Shown piece by piece: positions 164-6,443 of a stretch of DNA of 6,443 bases. The stretch's first letter is position 1, and every line of letters starts with the position of its first letter. The DNA is from a virus (Duplodnaviria; Heunggongvirae; Uroviricota; Caudoviricetes). Made by a program: the position numbers and the translations under genes. The notes under the pieces were generated by a model. The model made no database searches and was not told the DNA's origin. It saw only the letters and a program-made list of their open reading frames with translations. The stretch is taken from the IMG/VR virus record IMGVR_UViG_2698536392_000020. One strand, 5' to 3'.

Positions 164-317
164 TTTTATATTGGCGAGGTGACGGGAGTTAAGTAGAATT
201 GCTGCGGGTGCTTGAGGCTATCTGCCTCAGGCATGAACACCAAAGGCAGATAGAGAAAAGCCCCAGTTAACATTACGCGTCCTGCAAGACGTTTAACATT
301 AATCTGAGGCTCAATCT

Positions 318-530
318 ATGAACGGCAAATCTAGGTTAGCCTCTTACGTGCCGAAAGGCAAGGAGAAGCAGGCTATGAAGCAGCAAAAGGCGATGTTAAT
401 CGCCCTGATCGTCATCTGTTTAACCGTCATAATGACGGCACTGGTAACGAGGAAAGACCTCTGCGAGGTACGAATCCGAACCGGCCAGACGGAGGTCGCT
501 GTCTTCACAGCTTACGAACCTGAGGAGTAA
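318..530 (+). CDS. mok-like in-frame N-terminal extension of hok (70 aa)
   Basis: ATG at 318 with a weak SD (TGAGG 305-309); the ORF shares frame and stop with hok. Chromosomal hok loci are annotated with such a Mok extension (as I recall, MokC is 69 aa against HokC 50 aa). Confidence 0.45.
   Translation: MNGKSRLASYVPKGKEKQAMKQQKAMLIALIVICLTVIMTALVTRKDLCEVRIRTGQTEVAVFTAYEPEE
375..530 (+). CDS. hokD: Hok/Gef-family type I toxin (51 aa), closest to HokD (RelF)
   Basis: Translation MKQQKAMLIALIVICLTVIMTALVTRKDLCEVRIRTGQTEVAVFTAYEPEE matches the Hok family (transmembrane helix followed by the conserved periplasmic Cys-containing tail). From memory it differs from K-12 HokD at about one residue. 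SD AGGAGA at 361-366, 8 nt before the ATG. Confidence 0.85.
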   Translation: MKQQKAMLIALIVICLTVIMTALVTRKDLCEVRIRTGQTEVAVFTAYEPEE

Positions 531-977: not shown

Positions 978-2027
978 GTGCGGGTATTACTTCGACCTGT
1001 TCTGGTACCGGAACTCGGTCTGGTTATCGTTAAGCCAGGCCGTGAATCCATGCGGGTATTTCATGGCGGCAGGGTGCTGGTGGAGTCTGAACCGAAAAGC
1101 ATGCGTAATCTGCCGTCCGGGGTCGTTCCTGCCGTTCGCCAGCCGCTGGCGGAAGATAAATCATTACTGCCATTTTTCAGCAATGAGCGTGTGATTCGTG
1201 CTGCTGGTGGCGCTGGTGCACTGTCTGACTGGTTATTACGTCACGTTAAATCCTGCCAGTGGCCTCATGGTGATTACCACCACAGCGAAACCGTCATACA
1301 TCGTTACGGTACCGGCGCGATGGTGTTGTGCTGGCACTGCGACAACCAGCTGCGCGACCAGACATCCGAATCACTTGAGCAACTTGCTCAACAAAACCTG
1401 TCAGCATGGATGATTGACGTCATCCGCCACGCAATGAATGGCACACAGGAACGGGAATTATCGCTGGCTGAATTATCCTGGTGGGCAGTCTGCAATCAGG
1501 TGGTGGACGCATTACCTGAGGCAGTATCGCGTCGTTCTCTGGGATTACCGGCGGAAAAAATCCGCTCCGTATACCGTGAAAGCGACATCATACCGGGAGA
1601 ACAGACCGCCACCAGCATACTGAAGCAGCGCACAAAAAATATTGCGCTACCGCCTCACACCCACCAGCAACAGAACCCACCACAGGAAAAGACGGTGGTC
1701 AGCATTGCCGTTGATCCGGAGTCTCCGGAATCCTTCATGAAACGACCTAAACGTCGCCGCTGGGTAAATGAGAAATACACACGCTGGGTAAAGACACAGC
1801 CGTGTGCGTGTTGTGGTAAGCCAGCGGACGATCCTCATCATCTGATTGGTCATGGTCAGGGTGGAATGGGAACAAAATCCCACGATATTTTCACGCTACC
1901 GCTGTGTCGGGAGCATCACAACGAGCTTCATGTGGATCCGCTGGCGTTCGAAGAAAAGCATGGTTCCCAGGTTGATTTAATTTTTCGTTTTCTTGATCAC
2001 GCTTTTGCAACCGGCGTGCTCGGGTAA
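978..2027 (+). CDS. DUF968-family prophage protein (YdfU-like), with a C-terminal Cys/His cluster
   Basis: 349-aa ORF starting at GTG 978 with SD GGAGG at 969-973; an alternative ATG start at 1050 (MRVFHGG...). C-terminus contains CACCGKPADDPHHLIGHG...LCREHHNELH, an HNH/zinc-binding-like pattern. Gene order matches ydfU in Qin-like prophages. Confidence 0.75.
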   Translation: MRVLLRPVLVPELGLVIVKPGRESMRVFHGGRVLVESEPKSMRNLPSGVVPAVRQPLAEDKSLLPFFSNERVIRAAGGAGALSDWLLRHVKSCQWPHGDYHHSETVIHRYGTGAMVLCWHCDNQLRDQTSESLEQLAQQNLSAWMIDVIRHAMNGTQERELSLAELSWWAVCNQVVDALPEAVSRRSLGLPAEKIRSVYRESDIIPGEQTATSILKQRTKNIALPPHTHQQQNPPQEKTVVSIAVDPESPESFMKRPKRRRWVNEKYTRWVKTQPCACCGKPADDPHHLIGHGQGGMGTKSHDIFTLPLCREHHNELHVDPLAFEEKHGSQVDLIFRFLDHAFATGVLG

Positions 2028-2039
2028 AAGAGGTTACTG

Positions 2040-2411
2040 ATGCGTATAGAGTTTGTTTTGCCTTACCCGCCGACGGTGAACACCTACTGGCGACGTCGTG
2101 GCAGCACATATTTTGTATCAAAAGCCGGTGAGCGTTATCGCCGGGCTGTGGCGCTTATTGTTCGCCAGCAGCGGCTGAAATTAAGCCTGTCCGGACGGCT
2201 GGCAATAAAAATTATTGCAGAACCACCGGATAAGCGCCGCCGTGACCTGGACAACATTCTGAAAGCACCGCTGGATGCGCTGACGCATGCGGAAGTGCTC
2301 ATTGATGACGAGCAGTTTGATGAAATCAATATTGTGCGCGGTCAGCCTGTGCCAGGTGGACGGCTGGGCGTGAAGATTTACGAAATCAGAGGTGGTAACG
2401 ATGGCGCGTGA
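2040..2411 (+). CDS. rusA: RusA-family Holliday junction resolvase (crossover junction endodeoxyribonuclease)
   Basis: 123 aa; SD AAAGAGG at 2027-2033. Conserved RusA acidic motifs ([13 protein letters not shown] and IDDEQ) and overall similarity to K-12 RusA as remembered. Typical nin-region position immediately upstream of Q. Confidence 0.85.
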
Positions 2412-2772
2412 TATCCAGATGGTTCTTGAGCGATGGGGGGCATGGGCAGCAAATAATCATGAAGATGTAACATGGCCCTCGATAGCTGCTGGTTTTAAAG
2501 GATTAATCCCGACTAAAGTGAAATCACGTCCTCAGTGTTCTTATGATGACGCCATGATAATTTGTGGTTGTATGGCACGATTAAACAAGAATAATCAGTA
2601 TTTGCACGATTTGTTGGTGGATTATTACGTAGGTGGAATGACATTTATGGCTCTTGCACGTAAGCATAGATGTTCTGATGGGCTTATTGGTAAAAGGCTT
2701 TATAAAGCGGAAGGTATTATTGAAGGAATGCTTATGGCTCTGAATGTCCGGTTAGATATGGATATGCGGTAG
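2401..2772 (+). CDS. Q: Late-gene antiterminator Q, small Phage_antitermQ type (QuuD-like)
   Basis: About 123 aa from ATG 2401 ([25 protein letters not shown]...), resembling DLP12 QuuD as remembered. The ATG overlaps the rusA stop by 11 nt, which suggests translational coupling. The ORF-track start at GTG 2392 is a less likely alternative. Confidence 0.8.
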
Positions 2773-2865
2773 GGATATATAGTGATGAGGGTTATGTTTT
2801 CTGTGTTTATAATTAACATGTTTATTTTTTTTGATGGTCATGTATTGTGGAAGGTAGATAAAATG

Positions 2866-2894
2866 TTGCCTGGTGAATTGAAAGTATTGATAAT
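2866..2894 (+). promoter_or_regulatory. Candidate sigma70 promoter upstream of the CPBP gene
   Basis: -35 TTGCCT (2866-2871), 17-nt spacer, -10 GATAAT (2889-2894); followed by SD AAAAGGAG (2914-2921) and ATG 2926. A second possible -10, TATAAT at 2808-2813, lies 36 nt after the Q stop. Identified by eye only. Confidence 0.25.
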
Positions 2895-2925
2895 CAATCT
2901 TCATCATTAAATAAAAGGAGTGCTT

Positions 2926-3744
2926 ATGTGGATTGTGTTAGTACTGTCACTGTCAACTCTCAGTTGGCATAAGGTAGTGGCTTTTTCATTGTTGACGGTG
3001 TCTGTTGTCCTGGCTGTGCTTAATGATATTATTGATTGGTCGGTGTTGTTTTTTGTTGCTACAATCGTTTTTTTTATTATTTTGAAGTTCAACTGGAAAT
3101 ATAACGCCTGGGCTAAATCTATATATGAAGTTGGCATAGTTTTATCAGCCATAGCATTATCTTTCCATCTATGGCCAGGGTTTCACAATCCTGTAGTGCT
3201 AAATTCTGTTACTGTTGGCCCTCAAAGCACTCCCTATACAATGTATTTTAATTTTGATAAAGCGCTGGTGCCATTTTTGTTAGTCCTGTGTACATCTTCT
3301 TTGTTTAAAAAAGAAGTAAAATCAGAAGTGTCTTTGTGGAAGTGGGGGGCTCTGTCGCTCTCTGTTCCTCTTATCCTGTTTTTGGCTGTTTTTTTTGGTG
3401 GATTAAAGCCAGAGATTCATTTCCCTGAGTGGTTGCCAGAGTTTATATTGGCTAATTTGTTTTTTGTGTCTCTGGCAGAGGAATCATTATTTAGAGGGTA
3501 TATTCAATCACGGCTATCAGAAGTAACGTCTCCATTGGTTGCATTAATTGTGGCGGCTTTGTTGTTTGGTTTTTTTCACTATTCAGGTGGTGCTTTACTT
3601 GTATTATTTGCCACGTTATCTGGTGTTGTGTATGGATTGTCATGGATGTGGAGTAGGCGTTTGTGGGTTGCCACCCTTTTCCATTTTGGTTTGAATCTGT
3701 GTCACTTGTTATTCTTTACCTATCCATTTTTAAAACATAATTGA
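2926..3744 (+). CDS. CPBP-family (CAAX protease / Abi, PF02517-like) intramembrane metalloprotease
   Basis: Polytopic hydrophobic protein with the three CPBP signature motifs in order: EExxxR (AEESLFRGY), FxxxH (FGFFHYSGG) and HxxxN (FHFGLNL). Strong SD; ATG 2926 preferred over GTG 2920. AT-rich, unlike the flanking phage core. Confidence 0.8.
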   Translation: MWIVLVLSLSTLSWHKVVAFSLLTVSVVLAVLNDIIDWSVLFFVATIVFFIILKFNWKYNAWAKSIYEVGIVLSAIALSFHLWPGFHNPVVLNSVTVGPQSTPYTMYFNFDKALVPFLLVLCTSSLFKKEVKSEVSLWKWGALSLSVPLILFLAVFFGGLKPEIHFPEWLPEFILANLFFVSLAEESLFRGYIQSRLSEVTSPLVALIVAALLFGFFHYSGGALLVLFATLSGVVYGLSWMWSRRLWVATLFHFGLNLCHLLFFTYPFLKHN

Positions 3745-3884
3745 TTTTTTCTATGGTTTTAAATTTATAAGACTGAAAAATAGCAGGACGTGACATTTGC
3801 ATGAAAAATATGCACGGCAAAGCATTTACGTACGTAAAAAATCAGGTATGCTGTTAAGAGTGGTTATTTCGCCGCATAGCTTGA

Positions 3885-3907
3885 CCCCGCCTCTGAGCGG
3901 GTTTTTT
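3885..3907 (+). terminator. Rho-independent terminator
   Basis: Stem CCCGC (3886-3890), loop CTCTGA, stem GCGGG (3897-3901), followed by TTTTTT (3902-3907). Lies about 140 nt downstream of the CPBP stop. Confidence 0.65.
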
Positions 3908-4030: not shown

Positions 4031-4270
4031 ATGCTGAAACAGCAGGATATGACAGAAACCGCCAGAGTTGTGTTTGATGAATTAAGCGTCACCGAACCGG
4101 CGACGGTCGGGGAGATTGCGCAGAATACGTACCTTTCACGCGAGCGCTGCCAGTTAATACTGACCCAGCTGGTTATGCGGGTCTGGCAGACTATCAGTTC
4201 GGTTGTTACAGACGCCTTCAGTCCTGAAGGCTTTTTTATTTGTGGTAAATGGGCGGCTGGTGGGTGTTAG
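4031..4270 (+). CDS. Small hypothetical protein (79 aa) with a helix-turn-helix-like segment
   Basis: ORF with a weak SD; the segment TVGEIAQNTYLSRERCQLILTQLV looks HTH-like. Codon composition looks coding. However, a terminator-like hairpin with T-tract (4214-4241) sits inside the last 20 codons, so the true 3' end, or the coding status, is uncertain. Confidence 0.4.
   Translation: MLKQQDMTETARVVFDELSVTEPATVGEIAQNTYLSRERCQLILTQLVMRVWQTISSVVTDAFSPEGFFICGKWAAGGC
4214..4241 (+). terminator. Terminator-like hairpin with T-tract
   Basis: GCCTTCA (4214-4220), loop GTCC, TGAAGGC (4225-4231), followed by TTTTTTATTT (4232-4241). Confidence 0.45.
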
Positions 4271-4298: not shown

Positions 4299-4329
4299 TT
4301 GATGATAATTTACCTTTTGGGGCTATAAT
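4299..4329 (+). promoter_or_regulatory. Candidate sigma70 promoter for the AraC-family gene
   Basis: -35 TTGATG (4299-4304), 19-nt spacer (longer than optimal), consensus -10 TATAAT (4324-4329). By eye only. Confidence 0.25.
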
Positions 4330-4364: not shown

Positions 4365-5078
4365 ATGGTTGTTGTCTGTTCAGTTATCATGGTTTGCTCC
4401 CCAATTAATATTTTTCTTGAAAAGGATACGTTGTCACTTAAGCCCGGCTCAGTCGTTCTGGCCACCAAATGCATCAGGGCGCTTTTCCTTATGCATTATG
4501 GCAAAGTTAAAATTTTCGATATAAACCATTCCATAGTAAGTCAATATCTGGAAATTCAGCATAAGCTGACAAGAACTCATCTGACTGACGTTCCGCTTTA
4601 TCTGTCACTGGAACCCAACAACCCTGCGTTGGCTGAGGCTTTAATTACCAGCCAGAGATTTTCCGGAGATACCACGGATATGTTTCTTATGATGGCATGC
4701 CTGTCGCTGTTTGAATCAGATGAACGGATATTATTATTTTTAAGTGGATGTTTATCCAGTATAAGTGCCAAAGTCAGGGCGATAATTCAGACAGATATAT
4801 CAGCAAGCTGGACGCTTGGTGCGATTGCGTTACGCCTGCATATGAGTGAGAGTTTGTTAAAGATAAAACTGAAAAATGAAGGGCGCATGTTCAGTCGCTT
4901 GTTGCTGGAAGAGCGGATGCGTGTTGCTGTCAATATGTTATGTTCCCGGCATGGATATGGACAGGCTGTAGCAGAAAAATGCGGTTATTCAAGCTGGTCC
5001 TACTTTATTTCTGTATTTCACCGCTATTATGGCTTCCCGCCAGACAGATATGTATCCAGGCAAGGGCTTGATTATTGA
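4365..5078 (+). CDS. AraC/XylS-family transcriptional regulator of the YdeO/AppY/GadX type
   Basis: 237 aa. The N-terminus MVVVCSVIMVCS resembles the MSLVCSVIFI of YdeO and MDYVCSVVFI of AppY as remembered. The C-terminus has the AraC double-HTH (..MSESLLKIKLKNEGRMFSRLLLEERMRVAVNML...AEKCGYSSWSYFISVFHRYYGFPP). AT-rich. No recognisable SD. Confidence 0.85.
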   Translation: MVVVCSVIMVCSPINIFLEKDTLSLKPGSVVLATKCIRALFLMHYGKVKIFDINHSIVSQYLEIQHKLTRTHLTDVPLYLSLEPNNPALAEALITSQRFSGDTTDMFLMMACLSLFESDERILLFLSGCLSSISAKVRAIIQTDISASWTLGAIALRLHMSESLLKIKLKNEGRMFSRLLLEERMRVAVNMLCSRHGYGQAVAEKCGYSSWSYFISVFHRYYGFPPDRYVSRQGLDY

Positions 5079-5106: not shown

Positions 5107-5178
5107 GGCCCTTTAGCTCAGTGGTGAGAGCGACTCATAATCGCCAGGTCGCTGGTTCAAATCCAGCAAGGGCCACCA
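5107..5178 (+). tRNA. ileZ: tRNA with CAU anticodon (Ile2/ileX-like by sequence), possibly structurally defective
   Basis: Acceptor stem GGCCCTT/AAGGGCC, D-arm GCTC-AGTGGTGA-GAGC, anticodon loop CTCATAA, T-arm GCTGG-TTCAAAT-CCAGC, discriminator A and encoded CCA. Only 14 nt lie between the D-arm and the variable loop instead of the usual 18, so the anticodon stem is shortened to 3-4 bp. Confidence 0.6.
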
Positions 5179-5185
5179 TCACATA

Positions 5186-5262
5186 CCGCCATTAGCTCAT
5201 CAGGAAAGAGCGCCAGCTTTCGAAGCTGGTTGCGCGGAGTTCGGGTCCCCGAAGGCGGTCCA
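5186..5262 (+). tRNA. argN: tRNA-Arg (anticodon UCG)
   Basis: Cloverleaf by eye: acceptor CCGCCAT/AAGGCGG (one A-A mismatch), D-arm GCTC-ATCAGGAAA-GAGC, anticodon arm CCAGC-TTTCGAA-GCTGG, T-arm with TTCGGGT loop and one mismatch, CCA encoded. The deviations make it less certain than the next tRNA. Confidence 0.6.
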
Positions 5263-5275
5263 TTATCTGTATCCT

Positions 5276-5352
5276 GCGTTGTTAGCTCAGCCGGACAGAG
5301 CAATTGCCTTCTAAGCAATCGGTCACTGGTTCGAATCCAGTACAACGCGCCA
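5276..5352 (+). tRNA. argO: tRNA-Arg (anticodon UCU)
   Basis: Clean cloverleaf: acceptor GCGTTGT/ACAACGC, D-arm TAGCTCAGCCGGACAGAGC, anticodon arm ATTGC-CTTCTAA-GCAAT, T-arm ACTGG-TTCGAAT-CCAGT, discriminator G, CCA encoded. Confidence 0.85.
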
Positions 5353-5392: not shown

Positions 5393-5619
5393 AAATGTCT
5401 CACAATTCAGGCGGTTGACTGTTGTCTGGTTTGCGGGGAGTTTGTTAAAAGAAACTGGCATGGTGAATCCCCCTGTGCGGAGGGGCAATCAGCGAGTAGG
5501 TATATGGGATAATCGCGGATTCAGGTGCTGGTACTGAATTCACCGGGAGGCACCCAGCACCATGCAATGGCACATAGCGCCACTCTCCAGCCCCTCTCCG
5601 GAGGGGCTTTCTTATGGAC

Positions 5620-5841: not shown

Positions 5842-6443
5842 ATGGCATTTAAACACTATGATGTTGTCAGGGCGGCGTCGCCGTCAGACCTTGCGGAAAA
5901 GCTGACACACAAACTGAAAGAGGGCTGGCAGCCATACGGCGGACCGGTTGCCATTACGCCGTACACACTGATGCAGGCGGTGGCTATTGAAGGAGATCCA
6001 CAGGTCGGCCCTTCATCTGAGCCGGACTGGTTCTACGTGGTTGTGCTTGCCGGACAGTCCAACGGCATGGCCTACGGTGAAGGGCTTCCGTTACCGGATT
6101 CTTACGATGCTCCGGATCCGCGCATTAAACAGCTGGCGCGCCGCAGCACGGTAACTCCGGGTGGAGAGAGTTGTACGTATAACGACATCATCCCGGCTGA
6201 CCACTGCCTGCATGATGTGCAGGATATGAGTACGCTGAATCATCCGAAGGCAGACCTGAGCAAAGGGCAGTACGGCTGTGTCGGCCAGGGCTTACATATT
6301 GCCAAAAAACTGCTTCCGTATATCCCGAATAACGCGGGGATCCTGCTGGTACCATGCTGTCGTGGTGGTTCTGCATTCACCCAGGGCGTTGAGGGGACAT
6401 TCAGTGCGGACACTGGGGCCAGCCAGGATTCGGCACGCTGGGG
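5842..6443 (+). CDS. nanS: NanS-p-like sialate 9-O-acetylesterase (N-terminal DUF1737-like region plus SGNH esterase domain), 5' partial; continues past the window end
   Basis: SD GGGAGG at 5832-5837, ATG 5842; the frame is open to the window end (200 codons). Contains GQSNGMAYGEGLPLPD...PRIKQLAR...DVQDM...ILLVPCCRGGSAF, closely resembling E. coli NanS/YjhS as remembered. Occupies the position downstream of the stx site in Stx-phage-like prophages. Confidence 0.85.
   Translation, partial: MAFKHYDVVRAASPSDLAEKLTHKLKEGWQPYGGPVAITPYTLMQAVAIEGDPQVGPSSEPDWFYVVVLAGQSNGMAYGEGLPLPDSYDAPDPRIKQLARRSTVTPGGESCTYNDIIPADHCLHDVQDMSTLNHPKADLSKGQYGCVGQGLHIAKKLLPYIPNNAGILLVPCCRGGSAFTQGVEGTFSADTGASQDSARW

Follow-up and report, generated by a model that had tools for sequence, protein, structure and literature searches.

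A CPBP-family membrane protease gene in a moron-like cassette directly downstream of the antiterminator gene Q in lambdoid prophages of enterohaemorrhagic Escherichia coli

Introduction

Members of the CPBP family (PF02517, Rce1-like) are known from several settings. In Gram-positive bacteria they include the bacteriocin immunity proteins PlnI, PlnLR and SkkI, and other members, such as MroQ and the myxosortases MrtP, MrtC and MrtX, act in processing. Solved Rce1-like members are Rce1 of M. maripaludis (PDB 4CAD) and SpdC/LyrA of S. aureus (PDB 6U0O). In E. coli, the self-immunity protein McsI, encoded by plasmid pSYM1 of strain G3/10, confers immunity to microcin S (PMC3316575), from which it is evident that a single CPBP protein is able to protect E. 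coli, in this case an enteropathogenic strain (EPEC), against a membrane-acting peptide. Here we analyze a CPBP gene located at positions 2926-3744 of a DNA stretch of 6,443 nt, below referred to as the window, which belongs to a tailed-phage record (IMG/VR, IMGVR_UViG_2698536392_000020) and derives from a lambdoid prophage of enterohaemorrhagic E. coli (EHEC). The gene is located directly downstream of the antiterminator gene Q.

The region between Q and the lysis genes of lambdoid phages is a well-known site for morons, among which are stx, a trio of tRNA genes, nanS-p and psr. The CPBP gene shares with these elements the slot, an odd base composition, a presence/absence pattern and transcription in the lysogen, and it may likewise have promoter- and terminator-like elements of its own. 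It differs from them in that its cargo is a membrane protease, not a toxin, regulator, tRNA or esterase, and in that it is tied to one family of Q proteins over deep divergence (58-61% identity for CPBP and about 80% for Q). In Stx phages, small RNAs (sRNAs) are made from the interval between the late promoter PR' and the terminator tR'.

The gene and its source prophage

The window is 100% identical to the E. coli strain 2013C-4830, and the gene of interest is about 99.3% identical at the nucleotide level in the O157:H7 strains EDL933 and Sakai. The prophage is an EHEC lambdoid prophage of the Sakai Sp4/EDL933 CP-933M lineage, and the window covers its nin-to-late junction, i.e. the region downstream of Q; a preliminary description, made from the sequence alone, had taken the gene to be prophage-borne, and rightly so. 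In Sakai Sp4, the gene order is ECs_1084 (Q), ECs_1085 (CPBP), ECs_1086 (hypothetical), ECs_1087 (AraC-family) and ileZ-argN-argO, with pchA further on. The 99.3% identity, the same neighbours (Q, a TrmB-like gene, psrA and ileZ-argN-argO) and the same prophage type identify ECs_1085, annotated as "phage CAAX amino terminal protease family protein", as the same gene; it is positioned two genes upstream of psrA. The gene is thus already known, since both RefSeq and the Sakai reference annotation name it a CPBP/CAAX protease; it is uncharacterised and it occupies a typical moron slot.

The gene product is a CPBP-family protein

An open reading frame (ORF) on the + strand runs from GTG2920 to TGA3744. 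We took ATG2926, 5 nt past the sequence AAGGAG, as the true start, which is also the start called by RefSeq. The preliminary description had assigned a CPBP protein to exactly these coordinates, and our profile search bears this out: PF02517 is matched over profile positions 3-92 of 93 with an E-value of 2.9e-19 and a score of 69.6 bits, compared to a cut-off of 22.4 bits. The three motifs EExxxR, FxxxH and HxxxN, which it had also recognised, are present in the expected order as EESLFR (residues 185-190), FGFFH (214-218) and HFGLN (253-257). Its view that the protein spans the membrane several times holds as well. Thus, a Kyte-Doolittle scan detected 8-10 hydrophobic stretches, and the AlphaFold2 model based on a 35-sequence alignment is an all-helical membrane bundle (predicted local distance difference test score, pLDDT, 94.6; predicted template modelling score, pTM, 0.91), in which the motifs are located on the helices 170-200, 203-216 and 246-263. 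The protein hence has a polytopic helical membrane fold like that of Rce1 and SpdC.

The 35-member family alignment shows no variation at residues E185, E186, R190, F214, H218 and H253, and at least 90% of the members have N257, which is replaced by an Asp in one of them. The gene product is a CPBP-family protein with intact active-site residues, and the profile match is far beyond chance. Based on its sequence, the protein is predicted to be a catalytically competent intramembrane glutamic endopeptidase.

The same alignment revealed an invariant loop that is specific for the subfamily (H81, G85, N88, S101, Y107, N109, D111, K112 and P116). No solved relatives were found in a sequence search of the PDB, and the window protein shares 15-17% identity with the solved Rce1 and SpdC proteins. 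Compared to these two, it contains an extra N-terminal membrane half which, together with the invariant loop, is explained by neither of them. To our knowledge, E. coli has no prenylated CAAX proteins. The window protein matches PHROG 13291, a group without an assigned function, from end to end, and the window allele carries private substitutions such as the Arg in WSRRLW, a sequence that is WSGRLW in the other E. coli prophage copies.

The catalytic core is common to the window protein and the Gram-positive immunity and processing CPBPs, and weak NCBIfam matches occur there. The scores of the equivalog models are, however, far below their cut-offs: 46 versus 435 bits for ABC_perm_CPBP, 34 versus 250 for MrtP, 29.7 versus 130 for MrtS, and 17 versus 270 for MroQ. 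Moreover, unlike the genes of those immunity and processing proteins, the window gene is not adjacent to a gene for a bacteriocin, an AgrD-like peptide or a CTERM-tagged substrate.

Base composition, predicted promoter and terminator of the cassette

The CPBP gene has a GC content of 38% and its flanks have one of about 53%; values of 35-39% extend over positions ~2600-3800, compared to 51-56% upstream of position ~2400. The base composition of the cassette is therefore unlike that of the surrounding phage genes. All the prophage copies of the gene have a GC content of 36-38%, whereas the GC content of the chromosomal homologues discussed below agrees with that of their hosts (Pseudomonas, 71%; Dickeya, 57%; Providencia, 43%).

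The gene is preceded by a sigma-70-like promoter sequence and followed by a predicted intrinsic terminator with the stem-loop CCCGCCTCTGAGCGGG (Table 1). In eight variants of 84-99% identity, in which indels pile up upstream of the promoter element, three parts of it are kept: the sequence ATATTGATAAT, the spacing of 17 nt and the -35 hexamer, which reads TTGCCA or TTGTCA in relatives. Most prophage copies with an identity of about 83-99% still have the terminator, including loci L051 and L052, where the alternative stem AACCCGCCGATGGGCGGGTT preserves the hairpin. It is absent or degraded in the prophage of strain RM8082 (L003) and in L042, L047 and L054, and a search for it in the copies that are about 60% identical gave no match. 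No terminator was predicted between Q and the CPBP gene. The single gene may have its own promoter and terminator, based on consensus matches at 2866-2894 and 3886-3907 that are both conserved, but the promoter could equally be PR'.

Related prophages that lack the CPBP gene are informative in this respect. The same strain harbours a second, CPBP-less prophage, in which a PR'-tR' promoter-terminator pair directly follows its own Q, and the homology between the window and this prophage resumes at position 3897, inside the T tract of the terminator. Likewise, in the three prophage loci L011-L013, whose Q is about 80% identical at the protein level, the Q gene is directly followed by a clear TTGACC-17-TATATT promoter and a terminator, and the next gene is an unrelated one of the ORF6N type. 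Since these promoter-terminator pairs directly follow Q in the CPBP-less siblings, the CPBP cassette occupies the PR'-tR' position. A PR' like that of L011-L013 was searched for and found nowhere in the window, even when up to three mismatches were allowed. The element at 2866-2894 may be the promoter of a moron, or else PR' itself.

Two further observations concern this region in other prophages. First, a perfect 24-bp palindrome, CTAGATATTGCATGCAATATCTAG, is located directly after the Q stop codon in L014 (positions ~5865-5890), a prophage with a CPBP protein of 61% identity; this palindrome is a candidate that could be an operator or a Q-binding element. Second, in the Stx1d prophages (L003 of strain RM8082, positions 6933-7211, and L054) the stretch from the CPBP gene to stx1d, in which the terminator of the former is degraded, contains an ORF of 93 aa that is encoded on the other strand.

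Distribution, linkage to Q and selection

Of 5426 complete E. coli genomes, 572 contain the CPBP gene, mostly in a single copy and nearly always right behind the Q allele of the window; in 548 of these it is at least 99% identical. The serotypes O157:H7, O55:H7, O145:H28, O111:H8, O26:H11 and O103:H2 are among the matches listed. The Q allele of the window plus the spacer downstream of it is found in 571 genomes, as compared to 572 for the CPBP gene. In 41 out of 43 IMG/VR prophage loci a Q gene of the PF06530 type is located 150-240 nt upstream of the CPBP gene, and this adjacency is kept even in those prophages whose CPBP protein is only 58-61% identical. L058 differs in that its CPBP copy, which is about 56-59% identical, lies behind the gene for another Q-like protein with 267 residues and a Zn finger. 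The linkage between the CPBP gene and Q is thus tight and ancient.

The genes on the other side of the CPBP gene vary. In prophages of the window type these are the TrmB-like gene, psrA, tRNA genes and a nanS-p-like esterase gene, and in L040 the TrmB-like gene and psrA are followed by an stx2-like gene. The CPBP gene lies between Q and stx1d in RM8082 and L054, and in L051 and L052 it is followed by two tRNA genes and then the holin gene, and no other protein is encoded in the stretch from Q to the holin gene. The whole cassette is missing from L011-L013 and from the strain's second prophage; hence phages that are otherwise related differ in whether they carry it, as is typical for lambdoid morons.

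The ratios of nonsynonymous to synonymous substitution rates (dN/dS), calculated against different relatives, were 0.28, 0.13 and 0.23, with a range of 0.13-0.30, even where dS was saturated. Of 45 prophage copies, 42 are intact and contain all the motifs, and three are frameshifted. The prophage copies are under purifying selection. This bears on the possibility that the gene has no function and merely hitch-hikes between Q and the useful cargo of successful EHEC prophages. The lack of a known phenotype, the low expression level (see below), the three frameshifted copies and the fact that many of the carrier prophages are cryptic or ridden with insertion sequences would fit such a scenario. 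However, it is difficult to reconcile with the dN/dS values, with the 42 intact copies, and with the conservation of all family-invariant residues, the promoter and the terminator, and we consider it highly improbable.

Expression in lysogens

Expression of the gene can be assessed from a published RNA sequencing (RNA-seq) study on EDL933 (PMC4048457) and from two microarray studies. In the RNA-seq data, the CPBP gene reads rise to 51 under treatment with trimethoprim-sulfamethoxazole (logFC, the log fold change, +2.3), an increase of about 5-fold, whereas 0-6 reads were reported for Q, and 6 in LB medium and zero elsewhere for rusA; for scale, thrB and thrC had 39 and 34 reads in LB (PMC4048457). 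The CPBP transcript is thus above those of Q and rusA in uninduced lysogens. One of the microarray studies reported higher levels in an rpoS mutant in stationary phase, and the other reported higher levels in exponential than in stationary phase. Taken together, the gene is transcribed at a low level in lysogens, this transcription does not depend on read-through by Q, and it increases under an SOS- and prophage-inducing treatment. Such transcription in the lysogen, uncoupled from the lytic cascade, is a property of lambdoid morons, and the excess over the Q and rusA transcripts in uninduced lysogens points to an own or constitutive promoter. The preliminary description had proposed expression from the late region. 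This is correct as far as the position between Q and the lysis genes is concerned, but not with respect to the timing, because the gene is already transcribed before induction.

These data are also relevant for the question of whether the gene functions in the lytic cycle. In such a scenario, the protein would be produced chiefly upon induction, as the first product of the Q-dependent late transcript, and it might act on membrane proteins in the lytic phase, for instance in superinfection exclusion, in the processing or timing of holin or spanin, or in the removal of a membrane defence effector of the host. Several features are consistent with this: the gene is the first one after Q and on the late-gene strand, it is the sole protein gene between Q and the holin gene in L051 and L052, the terminator scan gave nothing that would separate it from Q, its linkage to Q is ancient, and its transcript rises about 5-fold under trimethoprim-sulfamethoxazole. 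On the other hand, the gene is transcribed without induction at a level above that of Q, a strong terminator lies between it and the late genes, and its close homologues are ordinary chromosomal genes without a phage context. In addition, it is not required for lytic growth, because it is absent from sibling phages having the same Q family and lysis genes, and it is absent from the deposited, i.e. propagating, phage genomes. A function in the lytic cycle is therefore quite unlikely in our view.

Chromosomal homologues

Full-length homologues with about 45-53% identity and a size of 270-276 aa are present across the Enterobacterales, and sporadic ones are known from Helicobacter, Pseudomonas and Vibrio as well as from a Yersinia plasmid. 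A search of 1.84 billion representative proteins yielded 997 clusters at E<=1e-10. The gene order at the site in Morganellaceae is modE-modF-CPBP-gpmA, and that in Serratia and Yersinia is modF-x-CPBP-galETK. Both represent a single syntenic site, modF-CPBP-gpmA/galE, and this suggests that the CPBP gene is an old chromosomal gene. In E. coli K-12, modF adjoins galE without a CPBP gene, which suggests that the gene was present ancestrally and was lost in the Escherichia lineage.

In other genera the chromosomal copies are located elsewhere, and no neighbour recurs across lineages among 80 chromosomal loci. It follows that standing alone is the normal state of this subfamily. The preliminary description had correctly noted that no bacteriocin or partner gene is adjacent to the gene within the window, and had presented it as an orphan. 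Given that the chromosomal homologues of about 50% identity throughout the Enterobacterales also stand alone, its solitary state is no oddity.

In P. aeruginosa and P. paraaeruginosa (L017, L018 and L131), a homologue with a GC content of 71% that is about 60% identical over three quarters of the protein lies between gpmI and a gene for an EnvC-like M23 peptidase, followed by a gene for a CtpA-type S41 protease. This cell-wall-remodelling neighbourhood recalls the pairing of SpdC with SagB. The proximity to phosphoglycerate mutase genes, gpmA in Morganellaceae and gpmI in Pseudomonas, could have been taken as a functional link; we rejected this because the adjacency to gpmA is explained by the modF-gal-gpmA synteny.

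Comparison with McsI

Among the CPBP proteins of E. coli, McsI provides the only functional precedent. To identify its gene on pSYM1, we used a 38-nt mcsS sequence rebuilt from two published primers. McsI has 216 residues and shares PF02517 and the motifs EExxxR, FxxxH and HxxxN with the window protein. It is encoded in the plasmid operon mcsS-mcsI-mcsA-mcsB together with the microcin, an HlyD protein and a C39-ABC exporter; the window gene is without such neighbours. Orthology between the two can be rejected, since they share 23% identity over 142 aa (pairwise E=9e-4) with an hhalign probability of 4.6%, i.e. only the generic core is shared. A tblastn search of 72,556 plasmids with the window protein returned no mcsI-type plasmid among the matches listed. 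Genes for a bacteriocin and its exporter, which are the typical neighbours of immunity CPBP genes, were found neither in the window nor in the Pfam-annotated homologue loci, and they do not recur in the 80 chromosomal loci.

Based on this precedent, the gene could be an orphan immunity gene against a bacteriocin or microcin, specifically against a class II microcin-like, membrane-targeting peptide of competitors, which would be a specific version of a protective role. McsI, itself a PF02517 protein, suffices for immunity to microcin S in EPEC, and microcin S has been reported to be lethal to both EHEC and EPEC. Furthermore, the window protein retains all the catalytic motifs and is expressed in lysogens, and its gene travels singly among replicons and taxa, examples being Helicobacter, Pseudomonas and a Yersinia plasmid. 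However, the protein is not an McsI orthologue, no bacteriocin, C39-ABC exporter or HlyD gene is located nearby in 45 prophage and 80 chromosomal loci, and the syntenic, vertically inherited copies in Morganellaceae and Yersiniaceae are atypical of immunity genes. Weighing these points, we regard an immunity function as a rather unlikely explanation.

Proposed function of the cassette

We propose, with moderate confidence, that the locus is a moron cassette directly after Q that encodes a stand-alone CPBP protease, which is made in the lysogen and most likely gives it a benefit of the lysogenic-conversion type, by protection or by a modified envelope. According to this proposal, an AT-rich cassette consisting of a promoter, one gene and a terminator would have been inserted in the slot directly downstream of Q, and the TTGCC(A/T)-17-GATAAT element would drive its transcription in the lysogen. 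The protein would act alone in the inner membrane. Its substrate would be either a protein of the host envelope or membrane that is conserved throughout the Enterobacterales, or a membrane-active peptide entering from outside, and its cleavage would be of benefit to the lysogen rather than to virion production. That the protein acts alone is supported by the homologues of about 50% identity, which are single genes at varied chromosomal sites without a recurrent partner.

The promoter element may be the constitutive PR' of the phage with the conserved terminator as its tR', so that the gene would be made in the lysogen and would be read through when Q acts. In an extended form of this idea, which we consider distinctly unlikely, the CPBP gene lies inside the PR'-tR' interval, and an always-on, prematurely terminated late transcript makes a shield for the lysogen in the form of microcin immunity or superinfection exclusion. 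Such a shield would help the EHEC and EPEC lineages to compete in the gut, and on induction Q would read through the CPBP gene into the stx and lysis genes. If true, the gene would be a protein-coding counterpart of the sRNAs that Stx phages make from the same interval.

A third possibility is that the protein is not a protease but a scaffold or regulator of an envelope enzyme or sensor kinase of the host, in the manner of SpdC (with SagB and WalK) or Abx1 (with CovS). Such a role might connect it with the control of acid resistance and of the LEE (locus of enterocyte effacement) by the neighbouring PsrA. The catalytic residues, which are missing from SpdC, are invariant in the family of the window protein, and this argues for catalysis. 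The Pseudomonas neighbourhood described above does not recur elsewhere. The TrmB-like gene and psrA can also be rejected as partners: the strain's second prophage carries both but has no CPBP gene, the TrmB-like gene follows tR' in prophages devoid of the CPBP gene, and the CPBP gene is present without both of them in RM8082, L051, L052 and L054. A scaffold function is therefore very unlikely.

The gene is not part of a classified defence system either. The preliminary description had used the label "Abi-type", but an implied role in abortive infection finds no support, as none of the PADLOC-DB v2 defence families was matched, even at E<=1. The name Abi for PF02517 is historical.

It should be noted that, besides this negative result, several points weigh against the proposal of a lysogen-protecting protease. 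First, the promoter is predicted from a consensus match. Second, the read counts are low, come from a single study and were assigned via a duplicated annotation in an old reference genome. Third, no homologue was found by tblastn in 50,697 deposited phage genomes, from which it follows that the carriers may be mostly cryptic prophages. Fourth, a protective function is suggested by analogy with McsI, with which only a core of 23% identity is shared at the low hhalign probability given above. Finally, vertically inherited chromosomal orthologues at a housekeeping locus fit a general envelope function better than bacteriocin immunity.

Other features of the window

The features of the window are listed in Table 1. 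The gene next but one to the CPBP gene encodes an AraC-like protein, classified as YdeO/GadX-like by NCBIfam. Its Sakai counterpart ECs_1087 has been called psrA (PMC13502914, Tree laboratory), and PsrA is a repressor of type III secretion that acts via GadE/YhiF (reviewed in PMC10877973). The psrA gene is a separate, independent moron adjoining the CPBP cassette. A strong promoter-like site, ATGATA-16-TATAAT, is present at 4302-4329 near this gene. The strain's second prophage has an intact TrmB-like allele of 65 aa, from which the ORF in the window departs by a frameshift after about codon 49 that replaces and extends its C-terminus; RefSeq marks the gene in the window as a pseudogene. Besides, the ileZ-type tRNA gene (anticodon CAT, 5107-5178) lacks 4 nt (GAGC) of the D-arm that are present in EDL933 and in the strain's other prophage, so that it has 72 instead of 76 nt; it is probably a crippled copy.

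Table 1. Positions of the features identified in the window.
Feature	Position	Strand	Basis or remark
sok/hokD	206-530	+	Rfam: sok antitoxin RNA (206-380) overlaps the hokD toxin ORF
Small ORF	between hokD and the DUF968 gene	+	
DUF968 protein gene	978-2027	+	
RusA gene	2040-2411	+	
Q antiterminator gene, PF06530 type	2392-2772	+	PF06530, E=3e-50; directly upstream of the CPBP cassette
Sigma-70-like promoter TTGCCT-17 nt-GATAAT	2866-2894	+	Promoter scan; about 30 nt 5' of the CPBP start codon
Shine-Dalgarno sequence AAGGAG	2915-2920	+	Read from the sequence; 5 nt before ATG2926
CPBP-family protease gene, 272 aa	2926-3744	+	PF02517 match, three motifs, AlphaFold2 model
Motif 1, EESLFR (E185, E186, R190)	3478-3495	+	Residues 185-190
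Motif 2, FGFFH (F214, H218)	3565-3579	+	Residues 214-218
Motif 3, HFGLN (H253, N257)	3682-3696	+	Residues 253-257
Putative intrinsic terminator, CCCGCCTCTGAGCGGG then TTTTTT	3886-3907	+	Terminator scan; 141 nt past the CPBP stop codon
Small TrmB-like helix-turn-helix ORF (= ECs_1086)	4031-4270	+	C-terminus frameshifted in the window
AraC-like regulator gene psrA (= ECs_1087)	4365-5078	+	194 of 195 residues the same as ECs_1087
Three tRNA genes	5107-5352	+	
sRNA STnc100	5429-5619		Rfam; on the + strand directly after the tRNA trio

Conclusions

The family is well known, the existing annotation is correct and the position is typical for a moron, so that neither the sequence nor the context of the gene will surprise a specialist. 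What makes it mildly interesting is its long linkage to one Q family, its placement at the PR'-tR' site, and its location beside psrA and stx in pathogenic lineages. Because the gene rides on prophages of the EHEC/EPEC type beside psrA, and in some strains near stx1d or an stx2-like gene, any protective or envelope-modifying activity of its product would be a lysogenic-conversion trait of important pathogens. The gene is also an entry point to a large, uncharacterised CPBP subfamily of the proteobacteria.

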